A stretch of 64,000 nucleotides of DNA from an uncultured delta proteobacterium (GTDB taxonomy: Bacteria > Desulfobacterota > RBG-13-43-22), in NCBI GenBank assembly GCA_963802945.1, contig CAWDKY010000033.1, forward strand, positions 1-64,000. Reading direction: 5' to 3'. The position numbers and the translations under genes were made by a program. Below, one piece after another: positions 31,905 to 41,982 of this stretch (within the stretch, counting starts at the first letter, position 1; each line of letters opens with the position of its first letter). A model generated the notes under the pieces. The model was not told the origin of the DNA and did not search any database. It worked only from the letters and a program-made list of their open reading frames with translations.

Positions 31905-33278
31905 ATGATCCCTTCTCCTTTACTCGCCGAATTAAAAACCATCTTTCCTCAGGAGCGCTGTTCTACGGGTGAATCGAATAGGAATCTTCACGGTTGCGAT
32001 GAATCCTTTCACACCCCTTGTCCGCCGGACGTGGTCCTCTGGCCCACCAGTACGGAAGAAGTGCAGAAGGTTCTTACCCTGGCCAACGAACATAAAAGCC
32101 CGGTTACCGCCTGGGGGGCCGGCACCAGTTTGGAAGGCAATCCCATTCCGGTCCAGGCAGGGATCGTTTTGAATTTCAATCAAATGAATCACATCTTAAA
32201 CCTTCGTTTAGCGGATCTACAAGTGGATCTGGAGCCGGGTGTGATTTATCAGGATCTGAATGAACACTGCCGTCCACACGGTCTTTTTTTTCCTCCTGAT
32301 CCCGGGGCCAGGGCGACGATCGGAGGCATGATAGGCAACAACGCCAGCGGAATCCGCACGGTTCGCTATGGTGCGACCAGGGATTATGTTCAGGCCCTGG
32401 AGGTAGTCCTGGTCGATGGATCTTTAATCCGAGTTGGCACCCAGGCCATAAAGAGTTCTTCAGGTTATGACCTTTGCCGCCTTTTTGTCGGCTCGGAAGG
32501 AACCCTGGGGATCGTGACCCAGGCAACCCTCCGACTGGTGGGTTTTCCCGAACATTTCTTATCGGCCGTGGCCACCTTTTCAACCACGCGCCAGGCCACA
32601 GAAACCGTTCATCAGATCATGATCGGCGGGCTTTCTCCGGCTGCCTTGGAACTCCTTACTCCCGAAGTCATTGCCCTTTTAAATAGGGAAAGGAACTTGG
32701 GGCTGGTTGAAGCACCGACCCTGTTTATGGAATTCCATGGGGCCGGTGAACAAGCCTTGAGCTATACCCTTGACCTAGTCCAGGACCTATGCCTGGAAAA
32801 CGGCGGGACAGGTTTTCAAGCAGGCCTGGGGCTTTCCGAGCGCAACCGCCTCTGGGAAGCCCGATATCAGACCTTTGAAACCATCAAACGGGCTCATCCC
32901 GGCTTTTCTTTTTTGATTGTGGATACGGCTGTCCCTATTTCCCGTTATCCGGAAATGGTGGAATTTGCCAGGGAGCTTTTAATCACCAAAGGGCAGTTGG
33001 GCTATGTCTTCGGCCACGCCGGTGATGGAAATCTCCATATGGCTCTGGCAGGCAAGAGAACGGAAACCAGAAATTGGGAAACCACGCAGGAGGTTAATCA
33101 GGCAGTGGTGTCTCAAGCCCTTCTTTTAAAAGGCACCGCTACCGGGGAACACGGCATTGGAATCGGCAAAAGGGTTTTTATGGAAGCCGAACACGGTCCT
33201 TCCCTGACTCTCATGCGCAGGATCAAAGAACTGTTCGATCCCAATCACATCTTGAATCCGGGCAAAATACTTCCTTAA
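31905..33278 (+). CDS. FAD-linked oxidase (D-lactate dehydrogenase/GlcD-like)
   Basis: GAGTSLEG, PPDPG, GSEGTLG, GHAGDGNLH, GEHGIG, LNPGK. Confidence 0.92.
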   Translation: MIPSPLLAELKTIFPQERCSTGESNRNLHGCDESFHTPCPPDVVLWPTSTEEVQKVLTLANEHKSPVTAWGAGTSLEGNPIPVQAGIVLNFNQMNHILNLRLADLQVDLEPGVIYQDLNEHCRPHGLFFPPDPGARATIGGMIGNNASGIRTVRYGATRDYVQALEVVLVDGSLIRVGTQAIKSSSGYDLCRLFVGSEGTLGIVTQATLRLVGFPEHFLSAVATFSTTRQATETVHQIMIGGLSPAALELLTPEVIALLNRERNLGLVEAPTLFMEFHGAGEQALSYTLDLVQDLCLENGGTGFQAGLGLSERNRLWEARYQTFETIKRAHPGFSFLIVDTAVPISRYPEMVEFARELLITKGQLGYVFGHAGDGNLHMALAGKRTETRNWETTQEVNQAVVSQALLLKGTATGEHGIGIGKRVFMEAEHGPSLTLMRRIKELFDPNHILNPGKILP

Positions 33279-33333
33279 AGAAAGAATAACATTAACCGTC
33301 TCATTGCGATATGGACACGGGGAAAACCTATTC

Positions 33334-34158
33334 ATGAATACTGAAAAAATCCCCGGCCCATCGATTTATCAGGAAGCGGCTAAGTGGTATCAATCCGAAT
33401 CCCTACAAACCCTGCGGGATAACTTTATCGAACTCATCCACCAGCATGACGTTCCCTATGCGGAAAATATCTTAAAAACCAACGATTGGGTCAATTATTG
33501 TTATTATTGCAGTCTGGTCCATTCTTTTGTGGCCGATCCGTCGGCCTTGATCATCGATTGAGGCGGGCTCTATGGCCATATCACGATGATGCTTCGGACC
33601 ATAGGTTATCAGAATGTCTTTAATTACCTCCTTCACCAAACGCCCCATTATTCCTTATTTGAAGAAGAGTTGAAGATTCCTACTTTGTGGGGCCGGGATC
33701 CGAACCGACTTGTCTTGGACACTAATTCCGTGGATGGTTTTATCTCTTCCGGGGTGCTGGAGCATGTTCGAGAGGACGGCCTTGGGAAGGAGGAAATGAT
33801 CCTCCAGGAAATCCATCGGATCTTAAAAGAAGGCGGTTTATTTTTTATCTGGAATCTGCCGGCCAAACTGGGGACATCAGAGCTACTGGCCATGATAACC
33901 GGAAAATGGCATCATCAATACCAGTATTGGAGAAAGGATATTGTTCGATTGCTTCGAAAAGCAAATTTCGACATCCTTTATTTCGACAAGCATAAATTTT
34001 TCCCCGGGGCGGTTATGGCTTTTTTGGAAAAAGGCATAGATCCCATCCGGGTCCTGCATTTTGACAACCGTCTTTCCCGCACGATTCCTTTTAACATTTT
34101 TGCCCGAGGTTTCGCCCTCGTTGCTCGAAAAAAGCCGGCTCATCATAATAACAAATAA
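33334..34158 (+). pseudogene. Class I SAM methyltransferase interrupted by an in-frame TGA at 33559
   Basis: Both ORFs share a frame and read LIID*GGLYG (motif I), SSGVLEHV, EIHRILKEGG. Confidence 0.7.
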
Positions 34159-34298
34159 GAAATCTTTATTTTTAAGAGAGGCCCCATGATCACAAAAGCT
34201 GGGGATATCGCTTTCTTCTGTCAGTGAATCCGGGACTGGTGGACAGAGGATTATTGAGGCAAAAGGTTATCTTTCGTCAAAAACCTAAAACCTTAACA

Positions 34299-34335
34299 GT
34301 GTCCCCATTTCCAAATTATTAGGGAGGGGTTAGGC
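34299..34335 (-). other. Truncated attC (R'' GCCTAAC only) running into a GGGGACAC motif
   Basis: Minus strand GCCTAAC-ccctccctaataatttggaaat-GGGGACAC; the R'' is exactly complementary to this cassette's 5' core GTTAGGC. Confidence 0.6.
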
Positions 34336-34366
34336 GAACGATTTCGTTTTGCCAAAACTTCGGTTT

Positions 34367-34537
34367 TTAACGAGATGAGCGTCGTATGAGTATCAAAACA
34401 CCGACTAAAATAATAATTAACGGCCACCACTGGGCCACGAGTGGACCAAGGTGCGGCAGCCAACCAAAATTGGACAGAAGAAAAATGAGCCCCAACACAA
34501 TTAAAATGTATGCCCCAAACTGAGATCTTGCCCTCAT
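34367..34537 (-). CDS. 56-aa membrane protein (LiaF/DUF5668-like), gene cassette
   Basis: Below the ORF-track length cutoff. AGGAGG RBS, then MRARSQFGAYILIVLGLIFLLSNFGWLPHLGPLVAQWWPLIIILVGVLILIRRSSR*. Confidence 0.8.
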   Translation of the reverse strand: MRARSQFGAYILIVLGLIFLLSNFGWLPHLGPLVAQWWPLIIILVGVLILIRRSSR

Positions 34538-34569
34538 AAAGCCTCCTAAGTAAGATAGCCTTCCTAAGT

Positions 34570-34678
34570 GCCTAACCCTCGTGGCAGCAGCGGCCGAATG
34601 GTTTGCTGGAAATTTTACACTTTCATCGGTTTATATATCACCGCAGCCATTATTCCGCAAATGATATATTTATTCGGC
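34570..34678 (-). other. Degenerate attC site
   Basis: R''-like GCCGAAT overlapping the upstream stop, partial stem GCGG..AATGG/CCATT..CCGC, R' GTTAGGC; 109 bp. Confidence 0.6.
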
Positions 34679-35359
34679 AATTCTTTTATCGGTTACACGT
34701 GGCACTGGTTGTTTTCCCTTCGGACAAATCCAAACACATCGTAAGCAGTAGGGCAAGAGGCCATCAGGACCATGCGGATCATATTCCCCTCTGGCTTTGC
34801 GGTACGATCGACACTGCAGACCTTCAAACGAATTGTCCGAGATCGCCTGCGCCGGACATTCTGAAATGCAGAGACCGCATTCGTCGCAGAATTGATCGCC
34901 TGACAACTTCGAGTGCAGGTCGAGTTCGGCAGTCGTGCCCATAACCCTCAGATGAACCCACGGTCCCCATTCTGGATGAAATAGAAAGGCATTTTGGCCA
35001 ATTTGACCCAGGCCAGCCGCTTGAGCCACGTATCGGAATTGCAGTCCACTCTGCCTCGGATAATCGACGAGTTTCACTTCACGCCCCTCTTGTACCATCC
35101 TCGCCTCGATTGTTCGGCAGACCTCAAGGAGGTGATCATCCGCTGCACAGTGTTCGCTGCCGCTATCTGTTGCATACCACGTCCATTCTTCTTCCGTGGT
35201 TACGTGATGGCCAAGCACGATTGCCGTACTCGCTTGCGGCATGAAACCCGAGAAAAATAATCCCTCGTTTTCTCGCAGGTGCTCGATAGGTACTATGGCC
35301 AAGTCACAGCAAGACCAGGAGTCGATGATTTGAAAAATGTTGTCAGAGTCCTTCATCAT
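34670..35359 (-). CDS. QueG/reductive-dehalogenase-like Fe-S protein, gene cassette
   Basis: AQAAGLGQIG, PEWGPWVHLR, CDECGLCISECP, CLRCVWICP. The ATG follows the core GTTCGAC immediately. Confidence 0.78.
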   Translation of the reverse strand: MMKDSDNIFQIIDSWSCCDLAIVPIEHLRENEGLFFSGFMPQASTAIVLGHHVTTEEEWTWYATDSGSEHCAADDHLLEVCRTIEARMVQEGREVKLVDYPRQSGLQFRYVAQAAGLGQIGQNAFLFHPEWGPWVHLRVMGTTAELDLHSKLSGDQFCDECGLCISECPAQAISDNSFEGLQCRSYRKARGEYDPHGPDGLLPYCLRCVWICPKGKQPVPRVTDKRIAE

Positions 35360-35388
35360 GTCGAACAAGCTATTCTAAAGTCTTCCGG
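35360..35388 (-). other. attI-like site, copy 2
   Basis: CCGGAAGACTTTAGAATAGCTT-GTTCGAC; about 22/26 identical to 37470-37495, with identity ending at the GTT. Confidence 0.65.
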
Positions 35389-35402
35389 TCAGTGGGGTCA
35401 GG

Positions 35403-36337
35403 GGGTCAGGTCTATTTTTTCAACATTATTTATTTTACCTGTGTCCGTATAATACGGCTTATTGAAGAAAAATGTAATCCTAAATACGCAGAAACTTGCT
35501 TCTGGGTGTAACCGTGTCTCTCCACTGCCTTCAATATCCGTTTATTTCTTGCTTCCTTTTTTCGAATCAATTCGGGGGATAATATTTTTTCCAGACTGGG
35601 TCTGTTAATAAAACGTTGGCTTTTTGATATGTCGGGAATTGCCTCTTTCCCCTTCAGATGATCTTTTAAACGTTCCACAAAAGAATCCTCCCCTAGGATG
35701 CTCTGAGCTCTCAAATCCTTCCAAATAGATTCCGATCTTATTCCAGCCCTAACAAACTGGCGATAGATTCCTTCCGCCTTCATTCTTTTGGGTGAAAGTT
35801 GCCCTAAGATCCCATCAACGGTAAGGCAGGAGGGCTTACTTCGCTGCCCTGCTGTAGCCGCATAGCTGCTCCATTTCCACTGGTTCGGGTTTTTTATGAG
35901 TTTTGCCCTTACCGGATTCAGTACGATATAACGGGAAACTTCAAGAAGATGGCTATCTTTTTGCACCAGAATACCCTTGAATCTCCCCTGGAATAAATGA
36001 CCAACGGTTCCATGTCGCTTATTGAACAACTGGGTAAACACCCCATTTAATTGTCTCATCCCAATGGAAAGGTTTCCATCAGGTGTTTCGATAAGCAAAT
36101 GATAATGATTATTCATCAGACAATAGGCATGGCAGAGCCAGTTATAGCGCGTGTTAACCTGGTAAAGGATTTTGAGGAAATCCTCACGGTCGTGATCATC
36201 CTTAAAAATCTCATTTTTGTTATTTCCTCGGCTGGTCACATGATAAAAAGCCCCGGGAAATACTATGCGTAGAGGACGTGCCATGAGTATCCTATATCAT
36301 TACTATATCTTCAATGTCAAGAAAATAGACCTGACCC
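35403..36337 (-). mobile_element. Y1/RAYT-like HUH transposase element bounded by 25-bp inverted repeats
   Basis: 35403-35427 GGGTCAGGTCTATTTTTTCAACATT versus the reverse complement of 36313-36337, GGGTCAGGTCTATTTTCTTGACATT (22/25). Confidence 0.85.
35430..36284 (-). CDS. REP-associated tyrosine transposase-like protein (Y1_Tnp HUH domain + C-terminal HTH)
   Basis: MARPLRI..PGAFYHVTSRGN, CLMNNHYHLL (HUH), GHLFQGRF, YIVLNPVRA, WKWSSY. Confidence 0.93.
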   Translation of the reverse strand: MARPLRIVFPGAFYHVTSRGNNKNEIFKDDHDREDFLKILYQVNTRYNWLCHAYCLMNNHYHLLIETPDGNLSIGMRQLNGVFTQLFNKRHGTVGHLFQGRFKGILVQKDSHLLEVSRYIVLNPVRAKLIKNPNQWKWSSYAATAGQRSKPSCLTVDGILGQLSPKRMKAEGIYRQFVRAGIRSESIWKDLRAQSILGEDSFVERLKDHLKGKEAIPDISKSQRFINRPSLEKILSPELIRKKEARNKRILKAVERHGYTQKQVSAYLGLHFSSISRIIRTQVK

Positions 36338-36398
36338 TAATTTTTCAAACCGGTTTTTCAGGCAAACTGTTCTCCATGGGGTTCTCCTTAATATGCTT

Positions 36399-36511
36399 TG
36401 CTAACGACTGGGTATCAGCGGCGGCGCCGAATTGTCACCGGATCAGGTTTTGCGCCGATTTCCATGCCTCAACACCTGGCTACGCCATCCGCCTGAATGC
36501 CCTGGTTGGGC
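36399..36511 (-). other. Integron attC recombination site
   Basis: R'' GCCCAAC, arm CAGGGCATTCAGGCGGATGGCG pairing with CGCCGCCGCTGATACCCAGTC, R'-like GTTAGCA; 113 bp. Confidence 0.85.
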
Positions 36512-36588
36512 AAATCAGTCTTGCCTTTTGTGTCCTGCTCACAGCGCCTTGACAGAATTTGATAATTTAATGACCGCCCCTCACTCTC

Positions 36589-37449
36589 TTATCCTAAGCC
36601 CTTCCTCCAATTTTCGTTCTTTATCGCATAATCAACAGCTTCGGGAACCATTCTTGTCCCGAAGACAACAGAATACCCGTCAGGAATCATCACGTCAAAG
36701 CGACCAGATTCCGTTTGTATCTGTTTCGGCATGAAAGGTGTGGCCGAAACTGCTCCGATGACCTTGCCAGTCTTGAGCCTCAAAACGGGTGCCCCGCTGA
36801 TGCCTGGAAAAGATGGCCGGTCGAGCCAATAATAATATTCTACTACTGGGGGAAGCCCGTATCCTACGGAAAAAGAGACTATAGCCTTGCTCAAAAGAGG
36901 AAGGGGGTGGAAATCTTCATAATACGTTTCAAACTCAACACCACCACGGGGGTAACCAATAAAAAGCACGTCCTCCCCCATTCTTGCCGGTTCGGTGTCA
37001 AACTCAAGTGGCGAGATGTTGTTGAAGGGCTCCGTCAAATGCATGATGCTTATGTCAATCTTCCAAAGGGGTTCAGTTCCGCTGGTCGGAACTTCGATCA
37101 GAATCGACCCCTCAGTCATAACGGGTTCAGTCGCGTCTTTCTTCTGCCCGACCAGGTACGCTCCCTTTGTCCAAGAGTCAACCACGATTACACGAGGATA
37201 ATTTGCGGCATTGACCTCATCGAAACCTTTAACCGCATGGTATCTTATAACCTTAACCTCATCGGCGCCTTCGACCACATGAAACGCCGTTACCGCGAAA
37301 TTTCCATTCCCTACGATGAATCCAGTTCCGATGCTACTTTTTTCGCCCGTTTTTCTACACTCAACCCTGACGATTGCTGACATCAGCTTGGAAATATAGT
37401 CAGCTTGCGTCTCGGGATTCTTACCCTTAATTTTTTTCCTTTTAGCCAT
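36589..37449 (-). CDS. Trypsin-like serine protease, gene cassette
   Basis: GTGFIV, VTAFHVV (His), DISIM (Asp), PGISGAPV (Ser). Confidence 0.85.
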   Translation of the reverse strand: MAKRKKIKGKNPETQADYISKLMSAIVRVECRKTGEKSSIGTGFIVGNGNFAVTAFHVVEGADEVKVIRYHAVKGFDEVNAANYPRVIVVDSWTKGAYLVGQKKDATEPVMTEGSILIEVPTSGTEPLWKIDISIMHLTEPFNNISPLEFDTEPARMGEDVLFIGYPRGGVEFETYYEDFHPLPLLSKAIVSFSVGYGLPPVVEYYYWLDRPSFPGISGAPVLRLKTGKVIGAVSATPFMPKQIQTESGRFDVMIPDGYSVVFGTRMVPEAVDYAIKNENWRKGLG

Positions 37450-37465
37450 ACGTTCTTACCTTTTG

Positions 37466-37495
37466 CCCCAACAAGTTATTCTAAAGTTTTTCTGG
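37466..37495 (-). other. attI-like site, copy 1
   Basis: CCAGAAAAACTTTAGAATAACTT-GTTGGGG; the core matches the R'' GCCCAAC of the same cassette's attC. Confidence 0.65.
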
Positions 37496-37599
37496 ATAAC
37501 TAAACAAATAAAAGAATCCCATCGGGGATCCCAACGATGGCCTTTGGCTGCTGTGGAGCAGTCAATAAGACGCCAACCCTTTCTAGTTCCAGGTAACCT

Positions 37600-37628
37600 A
37601 TTATAAATGATAAATATTATCTTGACAA
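37600..37628 (-). promoter_or_regulatory. Pc-like sigma70 promoter reading into the cassette array
   Basis: Minus strand TTGTCA-N17-TATAAT, about 130 bp upstream of the attI-like GTT. Confidence 0.65.
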
Positions 37629-37747
37629 TTTATTTCAAACAGTTAACAAAATATATAAGGAGGTCGAGCCCAATGCCTTCGACCTAAGTCCATCTGCCCT
37701 GATGTGGACGTACCTGTCCTCAGCCTAAACCCTGCCTTTAAAGTTTT

Positions 37748-37774
37748 CTGGACCCCGGCTTTCGCCGGGGTGAC
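37748..37774. repeat. Single REP-like palindrome, family B
   Basis: CTGGACCCCGGCTTTCGCCGGGGTGAC. Confidence 0.75.
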
Positions 37775-37882
37775 GGTGTGGGCAACGGAGCTCTTATTTA
37801 GTTAACGTAATTACAGTATTGGGAAAGACCGGACCACCGAATTAAAATAAATTCTGTTTCTCTAATTTTAAGGGAATGACTG

Positions 37883-38404
37883 ATGAACATATTGGATATC
37901 GGTTGCGGGAATCGGAAGATTAAAGGGGCCATCGGTCTGGACAGGAACCCGAGATCCCAGGCCGATGTTTTTCATGACCTGGATGTTCTCCCCTACCCTT
38001 TCGAGGACGATCACTTCGACCGAATCTACGGGATCGATGTGCTGGAACATGTAACCGATGTCCTTCGAACCCTGGAAGAGATTCATCGGATTGGAAAGAA
38101 GGATGCTCAGGTCTTTCTCAGGGTCCCTCATTTTACCAGCACCCTGGCTTACGGAGACCCGACCCATAAACATTTTTTCAATACACAGTCTCTGGATTAT
38201 GTTTGCGGGGGCTTTTCTGAGTATTCGTATAACCCTTCGGTGGTTTTTAAAAAGTTGGGGGTTCGATTAAATTTTTGGAAACTGCATCGTTGGGATGGAG
38301 TGTCCTTCCTGGCTAATCAATTTCCAGGTTATTACGAGAAACTCTTCGCCTTTATGTTTCCGGCCATGAATATCGAGTTTCAGTTGGAAATCATTAAACC
38401 TTGA
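37883..38404 (+). CDS. Class I SAM methyltransferase (Methyltransf_11-like)
   Basis: ILDIGCG, VLEHV, EEIHRI, DPTH. Confidence 0.88.
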   Translation: MNILDIGCGNRKIKGAIGLDRNPRSQADVFHDLDVLPYPFEDDHFDRIYGIDVLEHVTDVLRTLEEIHRIGKKDAQVFLRVPHFTSTLAYGDPTHKHFFNTQSLDYVCGGFSEYSYNPSVVFKKLGVRLNFWKLHRWDGVSFLANQFPGYYEKLFAFMFPAMNIEFQLEIIKP

Positions 38405-38426
38405 AGAGATATTGGTCCGAAAATAA

Positions 38427-38458
38427 AAAAGGGCAAGTCCATTAAGACTTGCCCTTTT
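38427..38458. terminator. Bidirectional intrinsic terminator between the methyltransferase gene and tRNA-Leu
   Basis: AAAAGGGCAAGTC-loop-GACTTGCCCTTTT. Confidence 0.85.
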
Positions 38459-38466
38459 ATTAGCTT

Positions 38467-38552
38467 TGGTGCCGAAGACGGGACTCGAACCCGTACGGAG
38501 TTACCCGCCACCCCCTCAAGATGGTGTGTCTACCAGGTTCCACCACTTCGGC
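38467..38552 (-). tRNA. tRNA-Leu(GAG)
   Basis: GCCGAAG acceptor stem, anticodon loop TT-GAG-GG, long variable arm, GGTTCGAGTCC, encoded CCA; conserved tpiA-secG-tRNA-Leu order. Confidence 0.97.
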
Positions 38553-38564
38553 ACGAGGTATTTC

Positions 38565-38936
38565 CTACTTGCTGATCGGGTTGGCCGGACTCGCGGGAAC
38601 AGTCGGAGCCGCCGGTAACGGAGTTGCGGGAGAACCTGTCGGAATCTTTGTCGGCATTGATTGCTTTTGGCTGGCCTCGGAAGGAGTTCTAATCACCGAG
38701 GAACTGGACCCGGGGCCGTACATAAAAGCCAGGAGCAGAGAAGTGATCATAAAAACCGCAGCAGCGACGGTAGTCAGCTTGGTCAGAAAGGTCGCAGCCC
38801 CGCTGCTTCCAAAGATAGTCTGGCTTGATCCACCAAAGGCCGCTCCCATACTGGCCCCTTTCCCGGTCTGAAGTAAAACAATCAAGATCAGGGCTATACA
38901 AACTATGATATGAATGATTATTGTCACAGTTGCCAT
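38565..38936 (-). CDS. secG: Preprotein translocase subunit SecG
   Basis: VLLQTGKGASMGAAFGG, FLTKLT. Confidence 0.95.
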   Translation of the reverse strand: MATVTIIIHIIVCIALILIVLLQTGKGASMGAAFGGSSQTIFGSSGAATFLTKLTTVAAAVFMITSLLLAFMYGPGSSSSVIRTPSEASQKQSMPTKIPTGSPATPLPAAPTVPASPANPISK

Positions 38937-38942
38937 AACGAC

Positions 38943-39713
38943 TTATTGATTAACCTCCTTGATCAAGGCCAGAAATTTTTCTGCGTTCAGGCTGGCCCCT
39001 CCTACTAATGCCCCGTCAATATCCGGCTCAGCGCATAATGCCCGAATATTTTCCGGGGTGACGCTTCCACCATACACAATCCTTTTCCCCTTTGCAAGGG
39101 GTTTATTAAAACGATCCGCCAGCAATCCTCGAATGAAAGCATGGACTTCCTGGGCCATGGCCGGGGTTGCCGACCTTCCGGTACCGATGGCCCAGACCGG
39201 TTCGTAGGCAATCACCCCCTGGGCAATCGCTTCCATAGACAGCCCCTGGACCGCTTCCAAGACCTGCCGGGTGATGACTTCCTGAATCCTCTCCCCTTCC
39301 CGTTCCTCTAAGGTCTCTCCCACACACAGGACCGGTTTCAAACCGGCCTTCAAACAGGCCGCAAGTTTTTGATGGACCTGGGCATCGGTTTCTCCAAATA
39401 CATGCCTTCGTTCAGAATGTCCTATAAGGCAATAGGAACAACCCACATCTGTCAACATCCGTGTTGAAATTTCTCCGGTAAAGGCCCCGTCCTCAGCCCA
39501 GTGGACATTCTGGGCCGCCACTTGAACGGAGCTGTTCTGGATTGCCCGGCCGAGGGCCTGCAGGGCCGTGAAAGGCGGGGCAATGACCACCTCGATTTGG
39601 ATAGGACTTGGCATCCCAGCCATCAGCGCCCGAAAAAAATCCAGCGTCTCCGGGATGGTTTTAAACATCTTCCAGTTCCCCCCTATCCAGGGGCGACGGA
39701 GATTTTTTTCCAA
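38943..39713 (-). CDS. tpiA: Triosephosphate isomerase
   Basis: GNWKM, IGHSERR, AYEPVWAIGTG, YGGSV, LVGGASL. Confidence 0.97.
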   Translation of the reverse strand: MEKNLRRPWIGGNWKMFKTIPETLDFFRALMAGMPSPIQIEVVIAPPFTALQALGRAIQNSSVQVAAQNVHWAEDGAFTGEISTRMLTDVGCSYCLIGHSERRHVFGETDAQVHQKLAACLKAGLKPVLCVGETLEEREGERIQEVITRQVLEAVQGLSMEAIAQGVIAYEPVWAIGTGRSATPAMAQEVHAFIRGLLADRFNKPLAKGKRIVYGGSVTPENIRALCAEPDIDGALVGGASLNAEKFLALIKEVNQ

Positions 39714-39737
39714 TTTAATTCCTCTCTCAAAGAAAAA

Positions 39738-39764
39738 AGGGAACGGGGAATGTCCCCGTTCCCT
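39738..39764. terminator. GC-rich hairpin between hppA and tpiA
   Basis: AGGGAACGGGGA-atg-TCCCCGTTCCCT; T-run on the minus strand. Confidence 0.6.
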
Positions 39765-39803
39765 ATCTTTATTAGATTAATGATGATTCATTCCTATCAC
39801 ATC

Positions 39804-39880
39804 GTCACCCCGGTGAAAACCGGGGTCCAGAAGAAAAAATTTCTTTTACCTTACTGGATTCCGGCTTTCGCCGGAATGAC
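39804..39880. repeat. REP-like inverted doublet, family B
   Basis: GTCACCCCGGTGAAAACCGGGGTCCAG ... CTGGATTCCGGCTTTCGCCGGAATGAC. Confidence 0.85.
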
Positions 39881-39932
39881 GGAAACAAACCATTTGAAAC
39901 TTTTATAAATCCATCATTTTTTGTCCCGAATA

Positions 39933-41982
39933 TTATCCCCAAAGAGAAATAATAATCGGCACGATCAACAAGGCCACGATGTTGATAACCTTGATCATCG
40001 GGTTAATGGCCGGACCGGCGGTGTCTTTATAAGGATCGCCGACTGTGTCACCGGTTACGGCTGCTTTATGGGCATCGGATCCTTTTCCGCCGTAAAGGCC
40101 GTCTTCAATGGCCTTTTTGGCATTGTCCCAGGCCCCGCCGCCGGAAGTCATGGAAATGGCCAGGAACAGCCCGGTGATGATCGAACCGATCAGCACCCCG
40201 CCCAAGGCCTTGGGTCCAAGGATAAGTCCGACCAGCACGGGAGTCACAACCGGGATCAGGGCTGGAACCATCATCTGTTTGATGGCACTCTTGGTCACAA
40301 TGTCCACGCATTTGGCGTATTCGGGTTTGGCCTTGCCTTCCATAATCCCCTTGATTTCCCGGAATTGCCGTCGGACTTCTTCGACCACGCCTCCGGCTGC
40401 CGTACCAACGGCTTCCATCAGCAGGGAACCAAAGTAATAGGGTAGCAAACCGCCGATAAACAGGCCGACAATCACAAACGGATCGGCCAATGAAAAGGTG
40501 ACCTTCATGGCTTCGGGGAATGACTTGGAAAATTCGGCAAAAAGCACCAGGGCGGCCAGACCGGCGGAACCGATGGCATAGCCCTTGGTCACTGCCTTAG
40601 TGGTGTTTCCAACTGCATCCAAGGGATCGGTGATCTTGCGGATCTTTTCATCCAGTTCGGCCATTTCGGCAATCCCGCCGGCATTGTCGGTAATCGGGCC
40701 GTAGGAGTCGATGGCCACGACGATACCGGTCATGGAGAGCATGGAAACCGCCGCCAGGGCAATGGCAAAAAGACCGCTGCCGGGATTGGCAAATCCGTTT
40801 CCCAGGGCATAGGCGGCCAGGATAGCCGCACTGATTACCAGACACCGGCCAGCTTGAAGACTTCATGGAGACTGCCAGTCCGGCAATGATATTGGTGGCA
40901 TGTCCGGTCTGAGAGGCTGCGGCAATATGTTTGACCGGTTTAAAGGATTTGGAGGTAAAATATTCGGTGATCACCACCAATAACCCGGTGACCAACAGGC
41001 CGACAACCGCTATCAGGAAGATATTCAGGGTGCTGAACTGGCTGGCTATTTCAGGATGCTTGCCGGCGAATTGATCGGTAGCGAAATAGAAGACGATGGC
41101 CGCCAGGATACCGGCCACAGCCAACCCTTTATACAAGGCGCCCATGATGTACTGACTCTTGCCCAAGCGGACAAAAAAAGTGCCGATGATTGAGGCAATA
41201 ATGGAAATACCACCAATCAGTAGGGGGAATTTTATCCAGGGGGTCCCGTCTCCAAAAACCGTTTTGGCCAAGAGCATGGCCGCCACCAGGGTGACGGTGT
41301 AAGTTTCATAAAGGTCAGCGGCCATACCGGCGCAGTCGCCTACGTTGTCGCCCACGTTATCGGCAATAACCGCCGGGTTCCGGGGATCATCTTCCGGGAT
41401 GCCGGCTTCCACCTTACCGACCAGGTCAGCCCCCACGTCGGCGGCCTTGGTATAAATACCACCGGCAATACGGGCAAAGACGCTCATCAGAGAGCAGCCG
41501 AACCCCAATCCGATCAGCGCATGGGTTTCTTTGGTAATGGCATAAAAAAGGGTGATTCCCAAAAGTCCCAAACCAACGACCATGATCCCGGTAACCGACC
41601 CGCCCTTGAAGGCCACGCCAAGGGCCTTGTTCAGACCGCCGTAAGCGGCTTGAGCGGTACGCACATTAGCCCGCACGGTGACCATCATACCGATATATCC
41701 GGCCAGGGCCGAACCGATGGTCCCGATCAGGAAACCGATAGCCGTCGTCCAGCCTAGGGCTGGAATAAAGCCGATAATCAGAAACAAGACAACGGCCACA
41801 ATGGCTACTGTTCTATATTCCCGGTTTAAAAAAGCCGTTGCTCCTTCCTGAACAGCTGCTGAAATCTCTTGCATCCGGGCACTGCCGGCATCCTGTTTAA
41901 GAATCCAGATGGCGGTAATTATGGAATACAGTACCCCGATAGCGCCGCAAATAATGGCAAAGGTAAAAATATTAAGATCCAT
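39933..41982 (-). CDS. hppA: Membrane H+-translocating pyrophosphatase, predicted K+-independent; frameshift near 40845
   Basis: [36 protein letters not shown]. Confidence 0.95.

Follow-up and report, generated by a model that had tools for sequence, protein, structure and literature searches.

The locus is best read as a sedentary chromosomal integron minus its integrase gene, the array of which is interrupted by an ordinary small transposon; we put the probability of this reading at roughly 80%. It is one of about 20 orphan attI-promoter platforms dispersed over the genome, and intI is absent at all of them. Of the integron there would survive a promoter-plus-attI module, one complete cassette (protease gene and attC) and the opening 67 nt of a second. 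Further along come a truncated second attI, with the genes for an Fe-S protein and a small membrane peptide behind it, and perhaps a degenerate attC at the end of the array. Into this array a mobile unit of 935 bp would have inserted, as is common for insertion sequences (IS); it encodes a Y1 HUH transposase of the REP-associated type and is bounded by inverted repeats of 25 nt. An initial annotation of the window (the whole 64-kb stretch of DNA that was analysed) had seen here attI-headed segments shuffled by the HUH transposase; its attI/attC reading was retained and the shuffling was not. As for its anatomy, the promoter, both 18-mers, the ORFs, the inverted repeats and the attC of the protease cassette were found, the attC after the Fe-S gene was not, and the half attC is weak. 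The features are as follows (R1, our attC model, is described below).

37600-37628, minus: Pc-like predicted promoter (TTGTCA-17-TATAAT), read from the sequence, aimed into the cassettes
37470-37640, minus: attI platform, an intI-attI intergenic module with the intI side gone (promoter, variable hairpin region of about 110 nt, attI core)
37470-37487, minus: attI core ACTTTAGAATAACTTGTT, inferred crossover between G37472 and T37471
36405-37471, minus: cassette 1 (trypsin-like serine protease ORF plus attC), its limits being the attI crossover and the G of the attC R'
37449-36589, minus: trypsin-like protease ORF (Pfam Trypsin_2, 53.5 bits)
36399-36511, minus: attC of cassette 1 (GCCCAAC ... GTTAGCA, 113 nt; R1, 24.4 bits)
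36338-36404, minus: start of the second cassette, cut by the IS (ribosome-binding site and 10-codon ORF)
35403-36337, minus: IS-like unit of 935 bp (Y1 HUH transposase with C-terminal HTH, within terminal inverted repeats)
36337-36313 and 35427-35403, minus: 25-nt inverted repeats, 88% complementary
36284-35430, minus: Y1_Tnp ORF, 284 aa (Pfam PF01797, 48.4 bits against 23)
35364-35381, minus: truncated second attI (delta-attI) ACTTTAGAATAGCTTGTT, core alone kept, heading the Fe-S gene
34670-35359, minus: Fe-S protein gene, 229 aa from ATG (Pfam Fer4, 25 bits)
34568-34578, minus: GGGTTAGGCAC, R'-like end of the attC claimed after the Fe-S gene, unsupported as attC
34367-34537, minus: 56-aa membrane peptide (Pfam LiaF-TM, 39.9 bits)
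34291-34335, minus: weak attC-like hairpin (GCCTAAC ... GTTAAGG; R1, 11.0 bits), inner helix absent

The attI platform and its cassettes

The 18-mer that had been called attI-like occurs twice on the minus strand, at 37487-37470 and, in a copy differing by one change, at 35381-35364. Integron integrases (TIGR02249 over the cut-off of 265 bits) were found in six of the 21 family genomes (296-386 bits), and seven full-length matches scored 354-386 bits. In four relatives (G002:C47, G007:C174, G004:C14 and G001:C166) an intact intI is followed divergently by the promoter block and then by the motif (ACTTTAGAATAACTTG in G007 and G004; a close variant in G002 and G001), which faces away from intI at about 230-250 nt from its start and so holds the attI place; in G014:C53, intI fragments adjoin the motif in the same arrangement. 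Because this is the canonical divergent position next to intI, the 18-mer ACTTTAGAATARCTTGTT is, on positional grounds, evidently the true attI of the integrons of this bacterial family. In L066, L079, L081 and L082 the sequence that separates intI from the first cassette aligns to the platform (37470..37640), as do paralogous copies; no Rfam family matched the platform. The annotated promoter is present at 37628-37600, 128 nt upstream of the attI crossover, and is conserved along with the platform; the same block heads the intI-attI spacer beside intact intI in the relatives and at least seven other platforms of the present genome. It would transcribe the first cassette.

At two or fewer mismatches, 19 copies of the 18-mer were found in the present genome (0 for the reversed control pattern), a count far above chance, yet one which shows that the motif is not confined to the locus. 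The motif was found in 12 of the 13 genus genomes and 16 of the 20 family genomes. The first genes behind the 18 other attI copies are mixed (11 with Pfam domains of differing kinds, seven without any), which is what cassettes would be expected to show.

The attC sites, imperfect palindromes of the form RYYYAAC ... GTTRRRY, were scored with R1, a home-made model built from 12 sites, none of them inside the window; the training sites were chosen by eye from a crude scan that showed no enrichment, with 122 hits against 221 in its control. The attC annotated after the protease gene is the top R1 match in the window, at 24.4 bits and E 0.0022 (E 0.149 on the genome-wide search); it was not among the R1 training sites. 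Between the Fe-S gene and the peptide, where a further attC had been claimed, R1 gave at most 4.2 bits anywhere in 34540-34680 and no RYYYAAC partner was seen. The claimed half attC corresponds to the weak hairpin (34335-34291; E of 2 for the window and 0.018 for a 571-nt stretch), which is possibly a degenerate attC ending the array. The span of the finding thus contains one attC that passes R1, one that is weak and a claimed one that fails, and because a single attC passes, the array is borderline by the rule for CALINs (integrase-less cassette clusters; at least two attC within 4 kb). In the genome-wide R1 search, nine of 24 non-training hits lay within 10 kb downstream of a same-strand attI (random mean 0.57, maximum 4, in 2000 trials); on 97 kb flanking attI in two relatives, 24 hits were obtained, ten of them non-training at E<0.03. 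R1 missed a junction palindrome (C17:197288-197415) that is taken here for an attC.

Behind cassette 1, the annotated cassette stub was read as described (ribosome-binding site and MENSLPEKPV-stop at 36377-36345, minus strand), ending 8 nt before the IS end; for this second-cassette start (36338..36404), no homologue was found in the 20 other family genomes searched. On the other side of the IS, the Fe-S gene with its delta-attI is 95% conserved in the closest relative, where the second attI is present without a full IS; about 57 nt of attI-proximal sequence survive there, preceded by a remnant of the IS left end. The Fe-S protein has a weak, below-cut-off likeness to the QueG and reductive dehalogenase families.

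Cassette exchange and the absence of intI

The locus was compared across related genomes, as the initial annotation had suggested, and the cargo was found to be swapped at the 3' end of attI between close relatives. At three platforms (C27:189056, C26:1483 and C33:37470) orthologous to platforms of the closest relative (G005, flanks 90-95% identical), homology spans the platform and stops within 4 nt of AACTTGTT, and the genes downstream are unrelated between the two genomes; the position of cassette 1 is occupied by other genes in G005. This pattern indicates that cassettes were exchanged at the attI 3' end since the two genomes split. Among the right-hand ends of variable segments, three of the six examined have a GTT junction preceded by RYYYAAC-type palindromes. 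An IntI-type tyrosine recombinase that acts on G|TT in attI and in the folded attC would have made the exchange.

No such enzyme is encoded nearby. In agreement with the initial annotation, which had noted no tyrosine recombinase, the PF00589 search of the contig was empty, all four matches in the genome being on other contigs. The best TIGR02249 match of the genome had 79.6 bits (cut-off, 265) with the IntI-specific middle unmatched, and tblastn with the IntI of the relatives gave just Xer-like genes and three short intI fragments, located elsewhere. The intI of a complete integron was thus found neither at the locus nor in the assembly, and the same holds for G005 and for G008 (20 contigs, 10 motif copies). 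Because the present genome is a metagenome bin (72 contigs, 6.7% contamination, 100% marker completeness), the missing intI is to be understood as absence from the assembly, so that the platform is either frozen or served in trans from lost or unbinned DNA.

The latter would mean that the platforms are in use, with an integrase on an unbinned contig, plasmid or mobile element loading all orphan attI sites in trans; we regard this as possible but doubtful. The cassettes differ at orthologous attI sites of two genomes that both lack intI, the attI core is identical across genera (18/18), which suggests continuing constraint, and in metagenome contigs of two further runs the attI core continues into different sequence, the point of divergence being 37470; moreover, half of CALINs are reportedly in genomes with IntI elsewhere (as given in the consulted part of PMC4889954). 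Against this, neither the present assembly, in spite of its marker completeness, nor G005 or G008 has intI, only intI fragments are left, and the exchange could be older than the intI loss. Unlikely, taken as a whole, is a wider proposal, namely that this Thermodesulfobacteriota family has 14 to 24 orphan attI-promoter platforms per genome, many at conserved positions on the chromosome, which are recombinationally active without an encoded integrase, acquire cassettes through the action in trans of an integrase borne on transient mobile DNA or of a different recombinase, and offer single-strand-prone cassette starts behind attC that are preferred by a REP-type Y1 transposon.

That the 18-mer and the upstream block are instead a portable promoter or 5' leader of a regulon, copied before differing genes and not a recombination site, would suit the finding that the motif is in every case 3-223 nt upstream of a same-strand ORF start, the good sigma-70-type promoter heading the long form and the pre-core hairpin that varies in sequence with its pairing kept, but is very improbable in view of the attI position of the motif by intI in four relatives, the conservation of orthologous elements at flank-level identity with cargo replaced at their end, the attC-model hits that come after the motif on the same strand, and the remnants of an intI start and ribosome-binding site on its far side.

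Under the reading as an integron without its integrase gene, the many orphan platforms with cassette turnover in integrase-free genomes are the remaining unusual feature; simple decay does not account for about 20 platforms, all without intI, in one genome. To our knowledge, attI sites have been described for very few integron classes and escape generic detection by programs, which leaves room for debate on how integrase-less cassette clusters arise and whether they are active. The present lineage supplies a recognisable attI with its promoter, and its integrase-less clusters are probably descendants of integrons that lost intI. With a recognisable attI, many platforms per genome and cassette turnover between close relatives that are both enzyme-free, service of orphan platforms in trans becomes directly testable.

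The Y1 transposase unit

The transposase had been annotated as HUH and RAYT-like, and its score with NCBIfam NF047646 (REP-associated tyrosine transposase) is 84.9 bits against a cut-off of 80; HYH and RYIVLNP are legible in the translation, and we take HYH to be the HUH motif and the tyrosine of RYIVLNP to be catalytic. The annotated 25-bp inverted repeats flank the gene, and by these terminal repeats the unit falls outside IS200/IS605, Y1 elements that have subterminal hairpins and neither terminal inverted repeats nor target duplication. Across the genus, seven units, 928-941 bp long, share these ends, and no target duplication was seen in the seven. A second copy in the present genome (C16:245750-246683) is identical except for a 1-bp deletion (one alignment gap; 98% protein identity over residues 1-244), and the identity stops at the inverted repeats, only the 935 bp being common; no attI or cassette therefore moved with the IS. 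The IS tip AGGGTCAGG has 14 exact copies in the genome, and the repeat also forms short inverted doublets elsewhere (pairs 55-137 bp), with about 42 tip-like sites in total. Next to the unit, 21 nt (35382..35402, minus strand) carry partial reiterations of the tip (CTGACCCC, ACTGACC), with no counterpart in the closest relative.

The initial annotation had proposed, in essence, that single-stranded DNA at attI- and attC-linked sites is cut and joined by the HUH transposase or by its end motifs, so that attI-headed segments, which an integrase elsewhere then loads, are excised, duplicated or shuffled. We give this very little credence. All three full-length IS copies of the genome (C33, C16:246683 and C30:107810) do follow an attC end in cassette orientation, the distances being, from shortest to longest, 21, 61 and 154 nt; since this proximity exceeds chance, the IS may to some extent target cassette starts. 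Two IS remnants (C17:200064-200318 and C37:32067) are within variable arrays, the second attI abuts the right end of the IS here and a left-end remnant in the closest relative, and TIR-like sites are less than 4 kb from five of 24 attI copies (random mean 1.4, P about 0.01); a comparable speculation was published for an IS200/605 element beside a CALIN (consulted part of PMC7923331). However, two of the three IS copies sit in a repeated module that starts many cassettes, and this shared module alone is enough to put two copies near an attC. The lack of association with attC and attI-like sites that the initial annotation had named as refuting its proposal is seen outside the present genome, although inside it the IS copies do sit in cassette arrays: none of 24 Y1 loci scanned in other genus genomes has an attC hit (R1, E<0.1), where R1 finds many attC beside attI, and one of 25 such loci has an attI-like site. 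The GGGGWCA end that was thought to be shared consists of two unrelated things, AGGGTCAGG being the tip of the IS inverted repeat and GGGGACAC belonging to the weak hairpin as its 3' arm. Cassettes join at G|TT of attI and attC, which is the IntI signature, and not at IS ends, and near-identical IS copies have nothing in common past their inverted repeats. With copies that carry only their 935 bp, homologues elsewhere that are not array-linked and a second attI that exists without a full IS, the evidence to date does not bear out a new shuffling system driven by the transposase. The IS would move independently, as a passenger of the array and not its engine.

Comparison with known systems

RAYTs are single-copy and vertically inherited, with hundreds of REPINs. 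The Y1 protein resembles them in its NF047646 score and in the inverted copies of a short repeat that flank its gene, whereas the two or three recent copies of the whole unit and the approximately 42 repeat-tip sites in the present genome are IS-like behaviour. IS1111-attC elements and group IIC-attC introns are found preferentially in cassette arrays and insert into attC itself, via DEDD transposases or retrohoming. The present unit is likewise a mobile element in a cassette array, but it lies 21-154 nt behind attC and its relatives elsewhere are not array-linked.

Group IIC-attC introns are also named in PMC7923331, in which, as far as the consulted part goes, ISHahl1 (IS200/605) lies by a CALIN of Halorhodospira halochloris and the authors speculate on CALIN mobilisation by an element of this type. 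In both cases an HUH Y1 element adjoins an integrase-less array; ISHahl1 carries tnpB besides tnpA, and its ends are hairpins and lack inverted repeats, whereas the present unit contains one gene only, for a Y1 protein with an HTH tail, is bounded by terminal inverted repeats of 25 nt and is inside the array. The occurrence of IS elements inside integrons and CALINs, and of an IS200/605 element by a CALIN with like speculation, is already published (PMC4889954, PMC7923331, both consulted in part).

The second attI (35364-35381) recalls the delta-attI-type gene cassettes of mobile integrons (PMC12901181, in the part consulted), in that a truncated attI replaces attC within the array; those cassettes are from class 1 and 2 resistance integrons with IntI1 activity shown, whereas the present case is from an environmental lineage with no integrase and was recognised by sequence. 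For CALINs and decayed sedentary chromosomal integrons, intI loss and IS-linked rearrangement were proposed as origins, and 12% of CALINs and 23% of complete integrons were reported to contain IS elements (Cury et al. 2016, PMC4889954, in its consulted part). The present locus is like a CALIN as described there in having cassettes with attC and no intI nearby or in the genome; it differs in that one attC in the span passes R1, that attI and the predicted cassette promoter are still recognisable, with short intI remnants at some copies, and that about 20 platforms, mostly with one to few cassettes, are present per genome.

Locus anatomy and flanking genes

The span on the minus strand of the window (contig C33 of the genome G000) is a chromosomal integron whose intI has been lost, and it is one of about 20 orphan platforms (promoter and attI module without intI) in the genome. 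It retains Pc and attI, a complete first cassette with the beginning of another, and a truncated attI before an Fe-S protein gene.

Features of the span (window coordinates)
37628-37600, minus: sigma-70-type promoter TTGTCA-17-TATAAT, read in the sequence
37487-37470, minus: 18-mer ACTTTAGAATAACTTGTT
37449-36589, minus: trypsin-like protease gene, 286 aa (Trypsin_2, 53.5 bits)
36377-36345, minus: 10-codon ORF (the stub) behind a ribosome-binding site, after a 190-nt spacer that follows the protease gene
36337-36313 and 35427-35403, minus: 25-nt inverted ends (88% complementary) of a 935-bp unit
between these inverted ends, minus: 284-aa Y1_Tnp protein with a C-terminal helix-turn-helix
between the 935-bp unit and the second 18-mer, minus: 21 nt, a partial repeat of the tip of the unit
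35381-35364, minus: 18-mer again (one change)
35359-34670, minus: Fe-S protein gene, 229 aa
34537-34367, minus: LiaF-TM peptide gene, 56 aa
34335-34291, minus: small hairpin
33304-34158 and 37883-38404, plus: methyltransferase-like ORFs on either side of the platform

The array is flanked by the two methyltransferase-like genes, on the opposite strand, and by a tRNA gene (38470-38552); the left methyltransferase-like ORF, as read in the sequence, may be split in two (85 aa and 190 aa). The feature inventory of the initial annotation was essentially correct, since the features were re-found on the minus strand in the same order and since no PF00589 recombinase gene lies on the contig. The latter bears out the earlier remark that the window has no tyrosine recombinase; the four PF00589 genes of the genome are all on other contigs. 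Outside the array, a short palindromic repeat, caccccggcgaaagccggggtccag, is present at 37744-37776 and 39787-39902 and has many copies in the genome; its Rfam matches were below the threshold (e.g., WsnRNA46, 36.7 bits versus 65.3). A membrane pyrophosphatase-like gene (named by eye from the translation) is represented by overlapping ORFs of 444 aa and 269 aa (39933-41982, minus strand), perhaps owing to a frameshift or to misassembly.

The attI motif and the missing integrase

Sites of the 18-mer with up to two mismatches numbered 19 in the genome versus 0 for the reversed pattern, and those with up to three mismatches numbered 29, of which 24 were kept as one family on the basis of the common upstream context and five were dropped. 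A same-strand ORF starts 3-223 nt downstream of every copy, mostly within about 145 nt. About seven copies have in common a module of about 185 nt, which starts TTGTCAAGATAAT...TATAAT promoter and ends with AACTTGTT; others retain just its final 45-60 nt, and four pairs of same-orientation copies lie less than 5 kb apart. The 18-mer was also found in 12 of the 13 other genomes of the genus, 16 of the 20 family genomes and two other families of the phylum, and a narrow scan of genome contigs with a 25-mer gave five stretches, all in Thermodesulfobacteriota/Deltaproteobacteria bins. An Rfam scan of 32000-40000 (E up to 10) gave no match on the platform and its module or on the attC, and no publication containing the 18-mer string was found. 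The 11-mer ATATACAGAAA, considered as an enriched motif, showed no enrichment (117 versus 106) and belongs to the intI leader region.

The 18-mer is attI. The module was assigned as the spacer that separates intI from attI and contains the cassette promoter, because of the intI neighborhood in relatives and the intI remnants in G000. No integron integrase was found in G000, where the best TIGR02249 score (79.6 bits; cut-off, 265) was on Xer-like genes. TIGR02249 integrases are present in six of the 21 family genomes, one or two in each, at 296-386 bits (354-386 bits if full-length). In four of these relatives (G002:C47, G007:C174, G004:C14, and G001:C166), intI is followed, all on the opposite strand, by its leader (...cctcctatttctgtatatc...), then by the promoter block seen in G000, and then by the motif, which is exactly ACTTTAGAATAACTTG in G007 and G004 and a close variant in G002 and G001, and which lies about 230-250 nt from the intI start codon; one contig stops exactly at the motif. 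In the relative G014 (C53), the motif is flanked likewise, by fragments of intI. G000 itself retains the intI leader and start at the far end of several platforms, and tblastn with the IntI of the relatives gave three short fragments only (C30:105897-106073, which adjoins an array; C29:23961-24143; C41:19294-19371). A second intI type (370-377 bits with TIGR02249; G009:C5:101074-102009, G004:C29:177825-178760, and G007:C210:6298-7233) differs in its upstream region, where the 18-mer is missing; thus, the family has two integron lineages. The possibilities that the 18-mer is a promoter or leader alone, or the right end of an IS200-like element, were dropped after the comparison with the closest relative, G005 (see below), and in view of the intI context. 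The crossover would lie at G37472|T37471, and the promoter would drive the first cassette.

The genomes richest in attI copies were G000 (14), G005 (13), and G008 (10), which have no full intI, and G011 (8), which has a cut intI; genomes with an intact type-1 intI have 1-3 copies. This is a hint that many attI copies go with a missing or cut intI, the genomes being few and related.

Candidate attC sites and exchange of cargo

A crude scan for attC (RYYYAAC ... hairpin ... GTT) gave 122 matches in the genome versus 221 in the reversed-sequence control; since matches were fewer than in the control, the scan was useless as a test, and it was used merely to choose candidate sites by eye. A model of our own (R1) was then built from 12 sites picked in this way (11 from G000, one from G007, and none from the window), which were aligned and given a three-helix structure by hand, because RNAalifold gave just four pairs on the 12 sites. 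Pairing at the training sites was 81% of cells versus 28-43% when slid, a circular figure since the sites had been selected for being hairpins. Genome-wide, R1 gave 35 matches at E up to 1, of which 24 were not training sites; nine of the 24 lay within 10 kb downstream of a same-strand attI (random mean, 0.57; maximum, 4; 2,000 trials). Same-strand runs of matches were present at C27:137942-140615 and at C30:106837-111968, the latter adjoining an intI fragment. R1 also gave 24 matches in the 97 kb surrounding attI copies of G005 and G007, with ten non-training matches at E<0.03; it missed a 128-nt junction palindrome (C17:197288-197415).

The best R1 match in the window (filters off) scored 24.4 bits (E 0.0022) and lay at 36399-36511, minus strand, exactly the attC that the initial annotation had placed after the protease gene, and by this model the span has one attC. 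The attC claimed after the Fe-S gene found no support, since R1 reached at most 4.2 bits between that gene and the peptide gene. As for the "half attC" at 34291-34335, a weak hairpin is indeed present, but R1 gave 11.0 bits only and the inner helix is missing; the array end is perhaps a degenerate terminal attC. None of the three claimed regions has a second copy in the genome, which is uninformative on their attC status.

First genes behind attI were searched with Pfam for 18 of the 22 copies outside the window (the first ORF of the other four was 60-104 aa). They were mixed: 11 had Pfam domains (patatin, SPFH, pentapeptide and Mrr nuclease, HMA, transglycosylase, radical SAM/B12, flavin reductase, short-chain dehydrogenase, two methyltransferases, and TIR) and seven had none. 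This is cassette-like content. A non-coding repeated module of about 170-200 nt, starting with TTGGCGCCGCCTGCGGCG exactly at the cassette junction (after attI or attC), was seen in at least five arrays (G000 C53:153204, C30:107651, C29:199036, C37:12511, and C16:246710).

Cargo has been exchanged at the attI end between close relatives. When the 13 motif loci of G005 were compared with G000 (flanks 90-95% identical), at least three were clear orthologous platforms (C27:189056, C26:1483, and window 37470), and at these three the homology crosses the module and ends within 4 nt of AACTTGTT, the genes beyond being unrelated. At one locus (L063), the sequence on either side of the motif was conserved; the remaining G005 loci had no attI at the syntenic place in G000, were rearranged, or were not resolved. 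Where the window has the protease, the stub, and the IS (the 935-bp unit), G005 has four different genes, coding for 255 aa, 240 aa (an HNH protein), 272 aa, and 156 aa; conservation is 95% for the second motif with the Fe-S gene. Six right-hand ends of variable segments were examined: three, in G000, were at GTT after palindromes starting with GCCTAAC or GTCGAAC, one was at the second motif, one at an IS-tip-type repeat, and one had nothing recognizable. A search of the 20 other family genomes gave no homologue of the stub cassette from which to reconstruct the locus before insertion. IntI would have made the cassette exchanges, and the platform would now be frozen or served in trans.

Junction reads had been suggested as a check, and the public sequencing runs (X1-X3) gave loose ends only, at sparse coverage: the share of sampled words present in any public run was at most 0.16, and uncovered parts are uninformative. 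One X2 contig and two X3 contigs matched the attI core and then diverged exactly at 37470, one X2 contig diverged at the IS end 36337, and one X1 contig covered 35295-35445 with no difference. No joint at attI, attC, or IS ends was present among the run contigs compared, the sole joint (37501 to 37588, one X3 contig) being inside the variable part of the platform.

The transposase unit and comparison with described integrons

The Y1 protein exceeds the NCBIfam cut-off for REP-associated tyrosine transposases (84.9 bits versus 80), and a REP-type Y1 transposon has inserted into the array. A second unit (C16:245750-246683) is the same but for a frame-breaking 1-bp deletion (protein 98% identical, residues 1-244), and a degenerate third copy is at C30:107810. 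Identity between the C33 and C16 units begins and ends at the inverted repeats; thus, nothing travelled with the IS, which is a self-contained unit. Its homologues in the genus (284-291 aa, 59-76% identical) all have the same flanking ends, and no target duplication was found in seven units of 928-941 bp. The 16-nt IS tip, GGGTCAGGTCTATTTT, has 14 exact copies in the genome, including short inverted doublets of 55-137 bp and the left end at C37:32067 described below.

In G000, the unit is tied to integrons by position: each of the three full-length copies follows an attC end, at distances of 61, 21, and 154 nt, and has the cassette orientation, two remnants are within variable arrays, and IS-tip-like sites occur within 4 kb of five of the 24 attI copies (1.4 expected). 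Two of the three IS copies occupy one repeated module that opens many cassettes, the TTGGCGCCGCCTGCGGCG module. The proposed association of Y1 homologues with attC and attI thus held by position in G000, but not in other genomes, where R1, which works well there, gave no match at E<0.1 near any of 24 Y1 loci (the 25th, L120, was omitted for its size) and an attI-like motif was present at one of the 25. The second attI is present in G005 too, where it is fronted by a remnant of the IS left end and by no full unit.

Further arrangements of IS ends were observed. At C37:32067 (minus strand), an unrelated ORF starting with MARLGKILIVGAG is fused to the IS left end with its promoter and the initial 10 nt of the transposase ORF; this may be an IS-derived promoter capture. 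Locus L042 (G005:C94; 3240-3060 and 1150-990, minus strand) has two repeats of about 170 nt that start with the IS-tip-like GGGTCAGCCCTTGACATT and finish like the first transposase codons, and one of them is fused to the truncated attI before the Fe-S gene. A start resembling that of this repeat occurs immediately upstream of an attC run, at G000:C27:140686.

The initial annotation was partly confirmed. Its integron part (attI, attC, and no intI) is supported by attI next to the intI of relatives, by the R1 attC, and by the cargo exchange. Shuffling of attI-headed segments by the transposase is not supported, since the copies share only the span between the repeats and the association is absent in other genomes; the two "GGGGWCA ends" taken as a shared motif are unrelated, one being the IS tip and the other an arm of the weak hairpin.

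In a limited search, we found no published description of many dispersed orphan attI-promoter platforms in one genome with cassette turnover without intI, and no relevant-looking publication on an integron with a REP-associated tyrosine transposase was found. Integrase-less cassette clusters (CALINs) have been described, with intI loss or IS-linked rearrangement as the proposed origin, and 12% of CALINs and 23% of integrons contain IS elements (PMC4889954). An IS200/605 element next to a CALIN, with the same speculation on HUH-driven movement, is described (PMC7923331), and a truncated attI within arrays, as before the Fe-S gene here, is described for mobile integrons (PMC12901181).
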